This document shows, piece after piece, positions 1 to 4,298 of a DNA stretch of 4,298 nt; the first letter of the stretch is position 1; every line of letters starts with the position of its first letter. The notes beneath the pieces are model-generated. The model made no database searches and was not told the origin of the DNA. It saw only the letters and a program-made list of their open reading frames with translations. Source of the stretch: a virus (lineage: Duplodnaviria > Heunggongvirae > Uroviricota > Caudoviricetes); the IMG/VR virus record IMGVR_UViG_2630968808_000006, one strand, 5' to 3'. The position numbers and the translations under genes are program-made.

Positions 1-615
1 GTGAGCGAAATTAATTACCAGGCACTGCGTGAAAAGGCAGAAAAAGCAACGAGTGGTGTGTGGTCGCTCGAATATGGAGATGGCCGATTTGATGGTGATG
101 ATGCACTAATTCATCGCGAGGCTGCTGGATATATTCCCATTTGCAGAATTGAAGGAGCGCATCCTGAAAGCGGTTTCGATGAAGATTTCCAAATAGAACA
201 GCAGGCCAATGCTGAATTCATCGCCGCAGCCAATCCGGCTACCGTGCTGGCACTACTGGATGAACGGGAAAGAAACCAGCAATACATCAAACGCCGCGAC
301 CAGGAGAACGAGGATATTGCGCTAACGGTAGGGAAGCTGCGTGTTGAGCTGGAAGCAGCAGAGAACAACCTTATTGATAGTGAATGCCATGTTGCTGAAC
401 TGGAAGAAGCGCTACGCGATAAGCAGGCGTTACTTGAAGCCTCAGAAAAGCGCATAGCAGAACTGGAAGCGCGGGAAATACTGCTCCCGGAACGTAGCAG
501 CATGCTTCATCGAACAGATTTTCACGAGGATTATCAAACGGTAATGGCATACAAAGTTTCTGAAGTCATCGCTGCAATCCGCGCCGCAGGCATTCGCATC
601 AAAGAAGGTGAGTAA
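1..615 (+). CDS. ea22: Ea22-like early-left accessory protein (204 aa) with a central coiled-coil
   Basis: ORF opens with GTG at window position 1 and translates MSEINYQALRE...; central block LLDERERNQQYIKRRDQENEDIALTVGKLRVELE and C-terminal AGIRIK.GE match what I recall of lambda Ea22; heptad-like E/A/L-rich centre; sits upstream of xis/int as in lambdoid phages. Start coincides with the window edge, so the true N-terminus could lie upstream. Confidence 0.8.
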   Translation: MSEINYQALREKAEKATSGVWSLEYGDGRFDGDDALIHREAAGYIPICRIEGAHPESGFDEDFQIEQQANAEFIAAANPATVLALLDERERNQQYIKRRDQENEDIALTVGKLRVELEAAENNLIDSECHVAELEEALRDKQALLEASEKRIAELEAREILLPERSSMLHRTDFHEDYQTVMAYKVSEVIAAIRAAGIRIKEGE

Positions 616-791
616 TGCGTGTGGCATGTATCGGCTTGTTACCGTACCCGACTCGTTTTTGGGCTTCTGCGCTAATTGCAAAGCCACATATCCTGATGGC
701 TGACAACATCATCCCGGCACCAAAGCGCCGCCGTACCGGTATTGCAGCGGCACGACGTGCAGCAAAGAAACGCAGGAGAGCAAAACGATGA
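615..791 (+). CDS. small hypothetical protein (58 aa) with a strongly basic Arg/Lys C-terminal tail
   Basis: Not in the supplied ORF track (below its length cutoff); read by hand: ATG at 615 overlaps the ea22 stop (TAATG) and its TGA stop at 789-791 overlaps the next ATG (ATGA). Translation MRVACIGLLPYPTRFWASALIAKPHILMADNIIPAPKRRRTGIAAARRAAKKRRRAKR. GGTGA Shine-Dalgarno-like motif a few nt upstream. Support is overlap geometry only. Confidence 0.4.
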   Translation: MRVACIGLLPYPTRFWASALIAKPHILMADNIIPAPKRRRTGIAAARRAAKKRRRAKR

Positions 792-979
792 AAAACCGTA
801 AAGCAAAGATGCTTATTTCCCGTATATACAGCCGTTGCTATCCCAGCCAGTGGTTGAGAGTTAGCAATCGCCGTATGGTGTTGTACTTATATTCTGGAAT
901 TGCCAGAGAGGGAATCAAAGATAAGCCCAGCGCAGCGCAAAACCGCTGGAAAAACCACTTGCGCACTAAAGGAGAGTAA
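788..979 (+). CDS. hypothetical basic protein (63 aa)
   Basis: ATG at 788 preceded by AGGAGAG (771-780) with about 9 nt spacing; start overlaps the upstream stop (ATGA); its TAA stop (977-979) is 1 nt from the next start. No recognisable domain. Confidence 0.4.
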   Translation: MKNRKAKMLISRIYSRCYPSQWLRVSNRRMVLYLYSGIAREGIKDKPSAAQNRWKNHLRTKGE

Positions 980-980
980 T

Positions 981-1199
981 GTGCCAACATTATTCAGAAA
1001 AGAATATCCGCGAAGAAGTCGAATAACAGAACTCCTGTTTCTCATTCTGTTTATCGTGTTGATGATACCGATATCCCCGCTAATTTTTGTCTGGGCAATC
1101 GGGAAAATAATTGAGCCAGTTATTGAATTGTATAACGACGTGGTATGGGCGTCGTTCAACACTCTGCACAATAAAATTAATCCATATAAGGAAAACTGA
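981..1199 (+). CDS. small single-pass membrane protein (72 aa from the GTG start)
   Basis: GTG at 981 lies 6 nt after GGAG (971-974), in frame with track ORF 900..1199, whose 5' part overlaps the previous ORF in another frame. Product begins (M)PTLFRKEYPRRSR, followed by one hydrophobic stretch LLFLILFIVLMIPISPLIFVWAIG and a ~30-aa polar tail. By hand count about 38% GC versus about 50% in ea22, with rare codons ATA, AGA and CGA. Confidence 0.5.
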   Translation: MPTLFRKEYPRRSRITELLFLILFIVLMIPISPLIFVWAIGKIIEPVIELYNDVVWASFNTLHNKINPYKEN

Positions 1200-1200
1200 A

Positions 1201-1623
1201 ATGACCACCATTACCAGAGAAAGCGCGGAGATTAAATCATTCATCACTGGCTTCCTGAGCGACCCGGCGCACGATAACCAATCATCAAACAGTCTGTTTG
1301 CTGATGTGTTTCGTATCGCGCTGGCCTCGCTGGAAGCAGAACCAGTTGCATGGACTGATGACGAGGAACTGCGAGATGTTGAGCAAATTGGTTTAGGTTA
1401 TTTATTACCTTGTCCTCCAGATAAATACGCAGACCCGCGTCGTGTAATTCCGCTGTATCGTGTGCCGCCAGCTCCCATAGTGCAGGCACAGGGAATTGAG
1501 ATCGCAATAAACGAACTGGTGTCTCTGTCCCCACAGCTGGATAAACGAGCGGTGGAAACTCTTTCTATGGCTGTGGCACATCTACGTAAACTGGTTAAGA
1601 AGCAGTTGCAGGTTAAGGAATGA
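1201..1623 (+). CDS. hypothetical protein (140 aa); N-terminal domain paralogous to that of the next ORF
   Basis: ATG at 1201 preceded by AAGGAA (1188-1193) with 7 nt spacing and placed 1 nt after the upstream stop; the track's longer form from 1111 would overlap the previous gene and lacks an RBS. Shares RIALASLEAEPVA and VIP(L/V)Y..AP motifs with ORF 1627..2475. Confidence 0.65.
   Translation: MTTITRESAEIKSFITGFLSDPAHDNQSSNSLFADVFRIALASLEAEPVAWTDDEELRDVEQIGLGYLLPCPPDKYADPRRVIPLYRVPPAPIVQAQGIEIAINELVSLSPQLDKRAVETLSMAVAHLRKLVKKQLQVKE
1312..1353 (+). repeat. copy 1 of a 42-nt in-frame direct repeat encoding RIALASLEAEPVAW
   Basis: CGTATCGCGCTGGCCTCGCTGGAAGCAGAACCAGTTGCATGG; about 33/42 nt identical to 1717..1758, with most differences at codon third positions. 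Confidence 0.7.
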
Positions 1624-1626
1624 CAC

Positions 1627-2475
1627 ATGAACGCTATCACCAAAGAACGTATTGAATTGTTCATTAAAAATCCGCTTGATAACGGGCTTACCCGTGGCGA
1701 ACAAATGGAACTGGCACGAATTGCACTGGCATCACTGGAAGCAGAGCCAGTTGCTTATATTTTCAAACATCCGGCCGGAAAATTATTCTGGGCTTTGACG
1801 GATGAAAGCAATAAAGATCAATCGGACGTTATTCCTGTTTATGCTGCCGCGCCTGCGTCGGTTGTGCCGGATAATGCATCAGAGCCTCTTGCTTATGCTT
1901 ACAAAGAGCTTACGCCTGAGATTATGCGCAACCATTTAGCTGTATTCGAGCGATATGGAATAGCACCAAACGATAGCTCTACCACAATTCAGGCACTGCG
2001 AATCGCGCTGGATGGCATAGAGCGGAGCGACGCCATGCTTCATGGTGCCGAAACTGTAAGCCAAACTTACAAGTTGCCAGTTAATACACCTTGCCAAGAT
2101 GCGCCAGCCCATATCTGGCTGCAAACGGCTGGAGTATGGCCAGAAGATGGCGAGTTAAGCGAATTAACGTGGTGCAGCCACAATCAGCACCATGATGACA
2201 CGCTATATGTTCGAGCTGACCTTGTGAATGGCAACTCTCCGGTAACTACGGATGGTTGGATAAGCTGTAGTGAGAGAATGCCTGAAAAGAACCAGAACGT
2301 GCTTATTTCGGTGAATTTCGATAGTGATCTGGTTGAGCCGCTAATATGCTCCGCACGCTATACCGGAAGTACATTCCGGCGTGGAGGTGTAACGGTTATG
2401 CCAGGTAATGGTATTGAGCAAGCAACTCACTGGATGCCGCTACCGGAACCGCCGCAGGAGGTAAACCGTGGCTAA
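1627..2475 (+). CDS. prophage protein (282 aa) with a DUF551-like C-terminal domain (Eaa-type)
   Basis: ATG at 1627 preceded by AAGGAA (1615-1620). C-terminus DGWISCSERMPEKNQNVLISV...ATHWMPLPEPP resembles the W...P...THWMPLPEPP signature I associate with DUF551 enterobacterial prophage proteins (recalled, not searched). N-terminal domain is paralogous to ORF 1201..1623. Confidence 0.75.
   Translation: MNAITKERIELFIKNPLDNGLTRGEQMELARIALASLEAEPVAYIFKHPAGKLFWALTDESNKDQSDVIPVYAAAPASVVPDNASEPLAYAYKELTPEIMRNHLAVFERYGIAPNDSSTTIQALRIALDGIERSDAMLHGAETVSQTYKLPVNTPCQDAPAHIWLQTAGVWPEDGELSELTWCSHNQHHDDTLYVRADLVNGNSPVTTDGWISCSERMPEKNQNVLISVNFDSDLVEPLICSARYTGSTFRRGGVTVMPGNGIEQATHWMPLPEPPQEVNRG
1717..1758 (+). 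repeat. copy 2 of the 42-nt in-frame direct repeat encoding RIALASLEAEPVAY
   Basis: CGAATTGCACTGGCATCACTGGAAGCAGAGCCAGTTGCTTAT, 405 nt downstream of copy 1; a partial third copy CGAATCGCGCTGG at 1999-2011 encodes RIALDGIE within the same gene. Confidence 0.7.
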
Positions 2476-2752
2476 CCTGCAACTTGCTGTCAAAGGTGAA
2501 TACTTCGATGCCATGATTCGCGGGGAGAAAACGGAAGAGTATCGCCTGTGTAATGACTACTGGAAAAAGCGCCTCGTTAACCGTAAGTATGACCGCCTGA
2601 TTATCACAAAGGGATATCCGAAGCGCGACGATTCCAGCCGTAGAATTGATGTTCCGTATGACGGATATGAAATCAAGACAATCACACATCCGCACTTCGG
2701 CGATAAACCGGTAAAGGTGTTCGCGATAAAGGTGAATATCAGCAATGAATAA
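2468..2752 (+). CDS. 94-aa ASCH/PUA-like (DUF3850-like) small protein in the slot lambda uses for ea8.5
   Basis: GTG at 2468 preceded by AGGAGG (2456-2461) with 6 nt spacing; overlaps the upstream stop by 8 nt (GTGGCTAA). N-terminus LQLAVKGEYFDAMIRGEKTEEYR fits the ASCH-type pattern (L.L....YF.A...G.KT.E.R). Only one Cys, so probably not the zinc-binding lambda Ea8.5 fold. Confidence 0.65.
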   Translation: MANLQLAVKGEYFDAMIRGEKTEEYRLCNDYWKKRLVNRKYDRLIITKGYPKRDDSSRRIDVPYDGYEIKTITHPHFGDKPVKVFAIKVNISNE

Positions 2753-2824: not shown

Positions 2825-2992
2825 ATGCACTTCCGAGTCACAGGTGAATGGAATGGAGAGCCATTCAACAGAGTTATCGAAGCAGAGGACATCAACGACT
2901 GCTATAACCACTGGATGATATGGGCGCAGATAGCGCATGCAGACGTAACCAATATTCGAATTGAAGAACTGAAAGAACACCAAGCCGCCTGA
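2825..2992 (+). CDS. 55-aa hypothetical protein, positional equivalent of the small ORF between ea8.5 and xis in lambda
   Basis: Not in the ORF track (below its length cutoff); read by hand: ATG at 2825 is 7 nt after GGAG (2814-2817); translation MHFRVTGEWNGEPFNRVIEAEDINDCYNHWMIWAQIAHADVTNIRIEELKEHQAA; TGA stop (2990-2992) lies in the loop of the terminator hairpin. Distance to xis and int matches my recollection of the lambda map. Confidence 0.55.
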   Translation: MHFRVTGEWNGEPFNRVIEAEDINDCYNHWMIWAQIAHADVTNIRIEELKEHQAA

Positions 2993-3004
2993 TGGCGGTT
3001 TTTT
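2982..3004 (+). terminator. Rho-independent terminator (GC stem, UGAU loop, T6 tail)
   Basis: GCCGCC (2984-2989), loop TGAT (2990-2993), GGCGG (2994-2998) giving 5 G-C pairs plus flanking G-U and A-U pairs, followed by six T (2999-3004). On the minus strand the stem is followed by non-T sequence, so it is + strand specific. Confidence 0.6.
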
Positions 3005-3005
3005 C

Positions 3006-3045
3006 TTGCGTGTAATTGCGGAGACTTTGCGATGTACTTAACACT
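3006..3045 (+). promoter_or_regulatory. cII-activated pI-type promoter: TTGC-N6-TTGC box flanking the -35, with the -10 and start point inside the first codons of xis
   Basis: TTGC (3006-3009), GTGTAA, TTGC (3016-3019) is the tetranucleotide direct repeat recognised by lambda CII at pRE, pI and paQ; it lies about 13-26 nt upstream of the xis ATG (3032), matching the lambda pI arrangement. The -10 hexamer is not unambiguous (candidates TGTACT or TACTTA around 3033-3040). Confidence 0.6.
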
Positions 3046-3250
3046 TCAGGAGTGGAACGCACGCCAGCGGCGCCCAAGAAGCCTTGAAACAGTTCGTCGA
3101 TGGGTACGCGAGTGCAGGATATTCCCTCCTCCGGTTAAGGATGGAAGAGAGTATCTGTTCCACGAATCAGCGGTAAAGGTTGACTTAAATCGACCAGTAA
3201 CAGGTAGCCTTTTGAAGAGGATCAGAAATGGGAAGAAGGCGAAGTCATGA
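3032..3250 (+). CDS. xis: excisionase Xis (72 aa), lambda type
   Basis: ATG at 3032 is 8 nt after GGAG (3020-3023); product MYLTLQEWNARQRRPRSLETVRRWVRECRIFPPPVKDGREYLFHESAVKVDLNRPVTGSLLKRIRNGKKAKS matches lambda Xis as I recall it; overlaps int by 23 nt as in lambda. Confidence 0.95.
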   Translation: MYLTLQEWNARQRRPRSLETVRRWVRECRIFPPPVKDGREYLFHESAVKVDLNRPVTGSLLKRIRNGKKAKS

Positions 3251-4298
3251 GCGCCGGGATTTACCCCCTAACCTTTATATAAGAAACAATGGATATTACT
3301 GCTACAGGGACCCAAGGACGGGTAAAGAGTTTGGATTAGGCCGAGACAGGCGAATCGCAATCACTGAAGCTATACAGGCCAACATTGAGTTATTTTCAGG
3401 ACACAAACACAAGCCTCTGACAGCGAGAATCAACAGTGATAATTCTGTTACGTTACATTCATGGCTTGATCGCTACGAAAAAATCCTCGCCAGCAGAGGA
3501 ATCAAGCAGAAGACACTCATAAATTACATGAGCAAAATTAAAGCAATAAGGAGGGGTCTGCCTGATGCTCCACTTGAAGACATCACCACAAAAGAAATTG
3601 CGGCAATGCTCAATGGATACATAGACGAGGGCAAGGCGGCGTCAGCCAAGTTAATCAGATCAACACTGAGCGATGCATTCCGAGAGGCAATAGCTGAAGG
3701 CCATATAACAACAAACCCGGTCGCTGCCACTCGCGCAGCAAAATCAGAGGTAAGGAGATCAAGACTTACGGCTGACGAATACCTGAAAATTTATCAAGCA
3801 GCAGAATCATCACCATGTTGGCTTAGACTTGCAATGGAACTGGCTGTTGTTACCGGGCAGCGAGTTGGTGATTTATGCGAAATGAAGTGGTCTGATATCA
3901 TAGATGGCTATCTTTATGTCGAGCAAAGCAAAACCGGCGTAAAAATTGCCATCCCAACAACATTGCATGTTGATGCTCTTGGGATATCAATGAAGGAAAC
4001 ACTTGATAAATGCAAAGAGATTCTTGGCGGAGAAACCATAATTGCATCTACTCGTCGTGAACCGCTTTCATCCGGCACAGTATCAAGGTATTTTATGCGC
4101 GCACGAAAAGCATCAGGTCTTTCCTTCGAAGGGGATCCGCCTACCTTTCACGAGTTGCGCAGTTTGTCTGCAAGACTCTATGAGAAGCAGATAAGCGATA
4201 AGTTTGCTCAACATCTTCTCGGGCATAAGTCGGACACCATGGCATCACAGTATCGTGATGACAGAGGCAGGGAGTGGGACAAAATTGAAATCAAATAA
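3228..4298 (+). CDS. int: tyrosine site-specific integrase Int (356 aa), lambda type
   Basis: N-terminal arm-binding region MGRRRSHERRDLPPNLYIRNNGYYCYRDPRTGKEFGLG; catalytic residues at lambda Int positions: R in VTGQRVGDL (R212), H308-x-x-R311 in TFHELRSL, H333 and Y342 in LLGHKSDTMASQY (positions counted from the translation). GAGG RBS 7 nt upstream. Complete ORF ending TAA at 4296-4298. Confidence 0.97.
   Translation: MGRRRSHERRDLPPNLYIRNNGYYCYRDPRTGKEFGLGRDRRIAITEAIQANIELFSGHKHKPLTARINSDNSVTLHSWLDRYEKILASRGIKQKTLINYMSKIKAIRRGLPDAPLEDITTKEIAAMLNGYIDEGKAASAKLIRSTLSDAFREAIAEGHITTNPVAATRAAKSEVRRSRLTADEYLKIYQAAESSPCWLRLAMELAVVTGQRVGDLCEMKWSDIIDGYLYVEQSKTGVKIAIPTTLHVDALGISMKETLDKCKEILGGETIIASTRREPLSSGTVSRYFMRARKASGLSFEGDPPTFHELRSLSARLYEKQISDKFAQHLLGHKSDTMASQYRDDRGREWDKIEIK

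Follow-up and report, generated by a model that had tools for sequence, protein, structure and literature searches.

The window, that is, the whole stretch of 4,298 nucleotides analyzed here, occurs, letter for letter, in three NCBI E. coli assemblies, and every sizeable open reading frame in it lies on the plus strand (Table 1). Its source is a prophage at the lambda attB site, adjoined by a pectinesterase gene that we take to be ybhC, and the window corresponds to the distal end of the lambdoid pL early-left operon. The gene order on the source contigs runs from a cI-like repressor through N, RecT, Gp157, DUF2737, Ead/Ea22, orf140, orf282, orf94, and orf55 to xis and int, and a similar order is found in locus L001. 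The gene of interest, orf282, is thus located between the recombination genes and xis/int, which is the position of the EaA-type genes and agrees with an earlier note, made from the letters alone, which had placed the DUF551 signature in early-region proteins of enterobacterial prophages. The single sigma-70-like site of the window (4258-4285) lies inside the integrase gene, so that orf282 should be transcribed from pL.

Several other elements of the window deserve mention. At 2982-3001, upstream of xis, the stop codon of orf55 lies within a strong intrinsic-terminator-like hairpin (AAGCCGCC-TGAT-GGCGGTTT, with a T-run behind it), so that N antitermination would be required for pL to express xis and int. 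Weaker hairpins occur at 2754-2775 and 2786-2805. Among the small ORFs that overlap in a chain, orf58 (615-791) ends in a tail very rich in Arg and Lys (KRRRTGIAAARRAAKKRRRAKR) and is followed by orf63 (788-979). On the source contigs, a 72-aa product is called at 981-1199; it matches DUF4014 and holds a hydrophobic, membrane-like stretch (LLFLILFIVLMIPISPLIFVWAIG). Within the Ead/Ea22 gene, a segment of ~115 nt (244-360) is 94-97% identical in many otherwise different loci (L005, L020, L026, L061, L079), and has the look of one more conserved joint, lying in the stretch that separates the N-terminal part from the coiled coil.

DUF551 is among the commonest unexplained domains of enterobacterial prophages. 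The exo-xis region that harbors it has an influence on both lysogeny and induction of Shiga-toxin phages, and neighboring exo-xis genes have been found to affect these processes (PMC3824215, PMC7093339).

Table 1. Features of the window, with positions counted from its first nucleotide.
Feature	Position	Strand	Details
Ead/Ea22 protein	1-615	+	PF13935, 121.6 bits
Three small overlapping ORFs	615-1199	+	
orf140	1201-1623	+	Upstream paralogue; N-domain in common with orf282, without DUF551
orf282	1627-2475	+	282 aa; mosaic Eaa-type early protein
N-terminal folded domain of orf282	1627-1842	+	aa 1-72; predicted two helices and three strands, pLDDT 72-89
Island I1 (ELARIALASLEAEPV)	1708-1752	+	Recurrent recombination joint in the N-domain; at least 80% identity in about 33 of 79 loci
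Helical middle segment	1906-2043	+	aa 94-139; predicted helices 97-110 and 117-138, moderate confidence (pLDDT 59-78)
Island I2 (SDAMLHGAETVSQTYKLPVN)	2027-2085	+	Joint in about 29 of 79 loci, where the helical segment borders on the low-confidence region
Low-confidence region, probable tether of the DUF551 head	2044-2247	+	aa 140-207; pLDDT about 30
5' joint I3 (NGNSPVTTDGWISCSERMPEK)	2229-2287	+	59 nt; linker and DUF551 N-edge; 78 of 79 loci
Pfam DUF551 domain	2254-2457	+	aa 210-277; predicted five-strand SH3/Tudor-like beta-barrel
Exchangeable DUF551 core, window type	2288-2419	+	...VLISVNFDS...GSTFRRG...
3' joint I4 (QATHWMPLPEPPQEVN)	2420-2465	+	46 nt; encodes the last strand and the Pro-rich tail, holds the ribosome-binding site for the next gene; 68 of 79 loci
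Shine-Dalgarno AGGAGG (2456-2461) and GTG start of orf94 (2468-2470)	2456-2470	+	
orf94	2468-2752	+	Putatively translationally coupled downstream gene; ASCH-like, phrog_625
orf55	2825-2992	+	
Excisionase	3032-3250	+	PF07825
Lambda-type integrase	3228-4298	+	

The DUF551 domain and the rest of orf282

A true DUF551 domain (PF04448) makes up the last ~70 residues of orf282. In the Pfam scan the match reaches 78.7 bits (E 6.1e-22), the gathering threshold being 22 bits, and the whole model is aligned, with profile positions 1-68 of 68 placed on residues 210-277. The 81-aa module alone scores 82.3 bits. The earlier note, which had recognized DUF551 in the last ~80 residues, was therefore right. 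The stretch 2230-2475 that it had delimited extends beyond the Pfam domain by a 24-nt linker (GNSPVTTD) on one side and by the tail and stop codon on the other. The ending ATHWMPLPEPP that it had given is not that of the protein, whose true end (...PLPEPPQEVNRG*) lies six residues further. The DUF551 annotation is correct, routine, and already public, since NCBI lists the same protein, identical at 100%, as 'DUF551 domain-containing protein [Escherichia coli]' (P0259), and orf282 is encoded on 20 public contigs. Its relatives in phage and E. coli records are annotated as 'EaA protein' or 'DUF551 domain-containing protein', in line with the earlier note, which had placed this domain in Eaa-type early-region proteins, and the family is indeed described as functionally uncharacterized (PMC10834534, PMC4776307).

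The Pfam score can be divided between the edges of the module and its core. Control proteins that keep only the edges score 48 bits when the core is shuffled and 42 bits when it is replaced by Gly-Ser, so the edges supply about half of the Pfam signal. With the real core in place the score rises by about 34-40 bits, which identifies the whole module as a true family member. For eight other core types, the real modules reach 61-81 bits, with their cores adding 13-39 bits over the edge-only controls, and this gain indicates divergent DUF551 cores and not foreign inserts. The artificial edge-only proteins reach about twice the 22-bit threshold, a warning to annotators that Pfam can call DUF551 on two edges, or on the remnants of recombination joints, alone.

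An exhaustive search with the module collected 1416 cluster representatives at E values up to 1e-3. Among the best 150 of these 1416, the domain ends no more than 10 aa from the C-terminus in 143, as it does in orf282, which has 5 residues beyond the Pfam match; ahead of the domain, the 150 carry a median of 138 aa. Pfam partners proved few: Ead_Ea22 occurs in 13 of the 136 representatives scanned; lambda P, a dATP/dGTP pyrophosphohydrolase, and an E1-E2 ATPase fragment occur once each; and about 120 have no Pfam partner. Stand-alone DUF551 proteins of 62-75 aa also exist. Many prophages carry tandem DUF551 genes, in which a YfdS-like 120-aa gene is directly followed by a 206-aa gene, as at about 3255-3617 and 3617-4237 in L033, L037, L040, L045, and other viral loci, and several matches appear in RefSeq under the name 'DUF551 domain-containing protein (x2)'.

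An AlphaFold2 model of the module, built on an alignment of 42 diverse modules, is confidently all-beta (mean pLDDT 88.6, pTM 0.75), with strands at residues 11-12, 23-29, 38-44, 49-51, 54-58, and 64-70. The module begins with ten linker-like residues (GNSPVTTDG), whose mean pLDDT is 59. The model covers the window-type core, and for the other cores the same fold is suggested by the Pfam score increments. Structure prediction and a Foldseek search, proposed in the earlier note as a check, gave a predicted all-beta barrel, with no confident match to a different characterized family in the PDB: no PDB structure matched the module model better than E 1.3, and the matches were weak and generic. 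Against BFVD, Foldseek returned exclusively other DUF551 proteins, from phages of Klebsiella, Pseudomonas, Delftia, Synechococcus, Cellulophaga, and others. A PDB sequence search with orf282 and the 42-sequence profile found no relative, a match to CD48 (E 0.18) being dismissed as chance, and a search of NCBIfam matched no model. As modeled, the DUF551 fold appears to be a generic small SH3/Tudor-like barrel without a solved or characterized relative, and a likeness of this predicted kind does not establish homology.

The conserved positions of the module (two Trp, several Pro, a Ser, a Thr, a His, and a Leu) lie at both edges, which correspond to the first and last strands of the model. W211, P219, W269, and P273 are invariant across the 42 diverse modules, while S215, T267, H268, L272, and P276 are conserved in at least 90% of them. 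Both edge motifs are present in orf282: W-[IV]-x3-[ED]-x-[ML]-P at the N-edge, and T-H-W-M-P-L-P-x-[PA]-P at the C-edge. Window-type sequences give a dN/dS of about 0.23 (63 codons, 15 distinct sequences), and the module of this type is under purifying selection.

Two functional alternatives can be weighed against these data. DUF551 might be a nucleic-acid-binding barrel of the KOW, Sm, or cold-shock kind or like some Tudor-like domains, which would anchor the N-terminal partner on RNA or DNA such as early transcripts or replication intermediates. This seems unlikely, because the modules are mostly acidic (31 of 44 below pI 6, with a median of 5.24 and a value of 5.09 for the window module), the conserved Trp, Pro, His, Thr, and Ser residues include no basic patch, and the fold matches are all weak. 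The conservation of Ser 215 and His 268 above 90% in the enterobacterial set could instead be taken as the mark of a small enzyme, for instance a hydrolase using both residues. However, a barrel of 68 aa that lacks both a conserved acidic partner and a pocket motif makes an implausible catalyst, neither residue is invariant (the His is changed to Gly or Tyr in some members, and the Ser is also replaced in some), and no enzyme fold stands out among the weak, generic structure matches, so that an enzymatic role is highly improbable. A protein-binding role is favored over both because of the prevailing acidity and the lack of a catalytic-looking conserved set.

The rest of orf282 is of a different nature. 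Its N-terminal 209 aa belong to no Pfam family, and Ead_Ea22 (PF13935) gave no match in the protein at E values up to 1. The first ~100 aa are homologous to the adjacent orf140 (32% identity, E 2e-7), both sharing the PHROG families 660, 3323, and 5117, so the 'duplicated N-domain' of the earlier reading holds in the sense of a neighboring paralogue. A repeat within orf282 itself was considered and discarded, the best 20-aa self-match being weak (EPVAY/EPLAY, BLOSUM score 26). Residues 38-141 are covered by phrog_6847. By tblastn, orf282 is 55-60% identical, over 43-51% of its length, to the 'EaA protein' of phages 1720a-02, Min27, PA18, and HUN/2013, with the similarity confined to the C-terminal half. 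Residues 38-67 (EAEPVAYIFKHPAGKLFWALTDESNKDQSD) are 87-90% identical to translated sequence of Escherichia phages W22, muut, PD06, and EC_OE_11, of ~146-149 kb, which indicates that mosaic fragments circulate beyond lambdoid prophages.

In the full-length model (mean pLDDT 68), the N-domain and a helical segment are followed by a low-confidence stretch and the confident barrel, a predicted picture of a head on a tether. Residues 140-207 are probably a flexible tether, where the pLDDT of ~30 was obtained with a shallow alignment and may reflect true disorder or missing information alike.

Joints, cores, and the downstream gene

Enterobacterial DUF551 modules have near-identical edges (GNSPVTPDGWISCSERMPE ... 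THWMPLPEPPQEVNRG) around a central stretch of ~45 residues that comes in many unrelated-looking types. In about 65 of the 80 viral loci compared, the core is only 7-18% identical to that of the window at the amino acid level, with a third-position identity of 14-35%, as expected by chance. In the same ~65 loci, the 60 nt encoding residues 201-220 are 75-93% identical, with third positions at 70-95%, and the 3' edge is 65-93% identical. The 5' joint is thus conserved at the DNA level including third codon positions, and the conservation of synonymous sites at the edges points to shared DNA ancestry and not to protein constraint alone.

Mapping of the HSPs with at least 80% identity onto the window, in 79 loci, resolves this conservation into four islands (Table 1), and the segments between them are common to just 2-15 loci, those that flank the two upstream islands to 2-12. 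HSP ends cluster at 1748-1754 in island I1, HSPs start at 2027 or 2047 and end at 2076 or 2085 in island I2, and ends pile up at 2229-2232, 2282-2308, 2420-2429, and 2462-2465 around the two joints of the module. The existence of the two upstream islands besides both joints implies that orf282 is built from at least four exchangeable segments. The viral loci were picked by a peptide pattern inside the 3' joint, and the count of loci for I4 is therefore inflated; by megablast, this joint was found at 575 places.

Since the viral loci are biased by their selection, occurrences were also counted in 5426 complete E. coli genomes. A sensitive blastn search found the 59-nt 5' joint at 6187 places in 2617 of these genomes, with up to 10 per genome, and the 132-nt window-type core is present at 1329 places in 892 genomes. 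The upstream segment 2086-2228 was found at 223 places in 211 genomes by megablast, a stricter search. Megablast with the 59-nt joint itself gave 49 genomes, its 28-nt word being unfair to short, ~90%-identical matches, and the sensitive search was used instead.

The combinations of segments can be read directly from individual loci. L079, L061, and L041 carry the upstream segment and 5' joint of the window (93-96% identity) with other cores, and L002-L015 carry its core without its upstream segment. At least 15 different C-terminal heads stand behind the same joint in 120 proteins that match the N-terminal 209 aa of orf282 at 78-100% identity, and, conversely, the head type of the window is found behind many unrelated N-terminal parts. 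As far as sequence comparison reaches, these data demonstrate that the ~45-aa core is exchanged as a cassette by recombination at the 59- and 46-nt joints, and that N-terminal parts and DUF551 cores reassort independently. The suggestion that fusion to the N-domain could help to define a partner for the module has consequently failed: the pairing is combinatorial, and neither the N-terminal part nor the head reveals a specific partner of the other.

Some of the heads found after the same N-terminal part and the GNSPVTPDG(W) joint are not DUF551 at all (P0269, P0273, P0344, P0358, P0286, P0341). One type looks helical (...VMVPKELTPEMMRAVQIRSELGGYATSNLSGAYNMF...) and another contains ...VQFSVSLPAAFGGDKYFIDGVFQPLRYERDCE..., neither having a Pfam family.

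The 3' joint has a second use. The gene ends in CAG GAG GTA AAC CGT GGC TAA, where the codons CAG GAG GTA (Q-E-V) of the protein tail contain the Shine-Dalgarno motif AGGAGG. Six nucleotides after this motif, the GTG start of orf94 opens an 8-nt overlap that includes the stop codon of orf282 (TAA, 2473-2475), an arrangement suggestive of translational coupling. A Shine-Dalgarno-like motif in the last 25 nt of the DUF551 gene, together with a start codon overlapping or abutting its stop, is found in 72 of 81 loci, and the genes that follow differ widely among them. As for orf94 itself, its Pfam match to ASCH is weak (E 0.057, 24 aa aligned) and its match to phrog_625 strong, and homologues are named 'ASCH domain-containing protein' in RefSeq. 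In other prophages, a gene of 86-95 aa is inserted between the DUF551 gene and the counterpart of orf94.

These findings bear on a further alternative, in which the module has no target-specific role: its edges would be DNA recombination linkers and a coupling site, and its cores tolerated filler in a dispensable gene. The conservation of the edges at synonymous sites, their ability to pass the Pfam threshold alone, the ribosome-binding site and start codon that the 3' edge provides for diverse downstream genes, and the occurrence of the same GNSPVTPDGW joint before non-DUF551 modules would all be expected on this account. It is nevertheless rather improbable, given that the module is under purifying selection, folds confidently in the model, and exists as a stand-alone protein. 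In addition, the edge motifs extend, at the protein level only, to phages of Pseudomonas, Delftia, Synechococcus, and Cellulophaga, where DNA homology with coliphages is not expected.

Proposed function and related systems

The literature on DUF551 is scarce. A full-text search yielded 12 papers that name the domain, none of them, mostly judged by titles and abstracts, a functional study. The paper on the Ea22 structure describes it as an uncharacterized, portable domain that is present in Ea22 variant V2, YfdS, and other fusions (PMC10834534). The paper modeling the exo-xis region does not treat DUF551, and a Gifsy-1 paper mentions an eaa homologue in passing. In K-12, either yfdQRS or yfdQRT in multicopy inhibited replication initiation, and YfdR alone bound DnaA, with YfdS failing to do so in pull-downs (PMC4776307). 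These are the only genetic data on a DUF551 protein, and they are indirect, YfdS being a marginal DUF551 member (22.2 bits). The idea that YfdT, with which it is genetically interchangeable, could be a hidden DUF551 protein was rejected (hhalign probability 0.1%).

The preferred reading, to which we assign a probability of roughly one half, is that DUF551 is an autonomously folding, tethered barrel and an exchangeable cassette, which serves as the protein-binding head of a mosaic, non-essential early protein. According to this proposal, the barrel would act as the binding head, the invariant edges (W-x7-P and T-H-W-M-P-L-P-x-P-P) would putatively clasp it shut, and the variable core would form the surface that sets target specificity. 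The orf282 protein would then target a protein of the host or the phage soon after infection or induction, and might, by analogy, resemble its exo-xis neighbors, which tune the lysis-lysogeny decision. The compact barrel, the purifying selection, and the fixed joints make experiments easier to design, be it with the module alone, with swapped cores, or in the search for partners of each core type.

A more tentative idea is that DUF551 heads could be the phage counterpart of polymorphic recognition modules, where a constant barrel frame, clasped by Trp and Pro residues, is kept and the core is swapped as a cassette by Red/RecT-type recombination at two in-frame joints of ~50 nt. If so, early proteins could quickly be retargeted to different proteins of the host or of rival phages, for instance defense or takeover targets, and selection would act on the joints in two ways, through the structure of the protein and through their use in recombination.

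Diversity of this kind could also have arisen from a phage-phage arms race instead of host takeover, with DUF551 proteins acting as prophage-encoded factors of defense or superinfection exclusion that use their variable heads to sense invading phages. Prophage accessory regions often carry defense genes, and both the extreme diversity of heads on a constant scaffold and the presence of up to 10 joint copies per genome resemble polymorphic recognition systems. Such a role is nonetheless quite doubtful. A PADLOC search with orf282, orf140, orf94, orf55, and Ea22 gave no match at E values up to 0.1, and orf282 is located far inside the pL operon, away from any promoter-like site, and should therefore be silent in a repressed lysogen. 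The family is also found in phages named as lytic in papers and in BFVD entries listing DUF551.

Among known systems, the closest is the family itself. The members of PF04448/IPR007539, including P22-type EaA and YfdS, share with orf282 the edge motifs, the C-terminal position, and the prophage early-region setting, and nothing categorical separates orf282 from them, even though the core of YfdS differs from its own. With the small beta-barrels of the Tudor, PWWP, Agenet, and SH3-like types, any likeness would lie in the predicted barrel, and the structure matches are weak. Lambda Ea22 and its Stx-phage variants combine, like orf282, a constant N-terminal part with a swappable, mostly acidic C-terminal domain in the same region (PMC10834534, PMC7093339). 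However, the Ead_Ea22 domain is found not in orf282 but in the separate gene at 1-615, and the solved C-terminal domain of lambda Ea22 is an alpha/beta dimer and not a DUF551 barrel (PMC10834534). A pro-lysogenic role has been demonstrated for Ea22 only, and not for orf282.

The joints, in turn, recall the linker sequences of lambdoid phages, in that stretches of 45-60 nt with high identity flank non-homologous segments and mark recurrent breakpoints. The modular evolution theory of Botstein holds that lambdoid phages have conserved linker sequences at module boundaries, and such boundary sequences were reportedly noted in comparisons of HK97, HK022, and HK620. A cassette within a domain, exchanged at joints of dual use, is thus only a mildly unexpected result that fits the long-known mosaicism of these phages. 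Unlike the lambdoid linkers, though, the DUF551 joints are found not between genes but inside a protein domain, as its first and last structural elements, and the 3' joint appears to double as a translational-coupling site.
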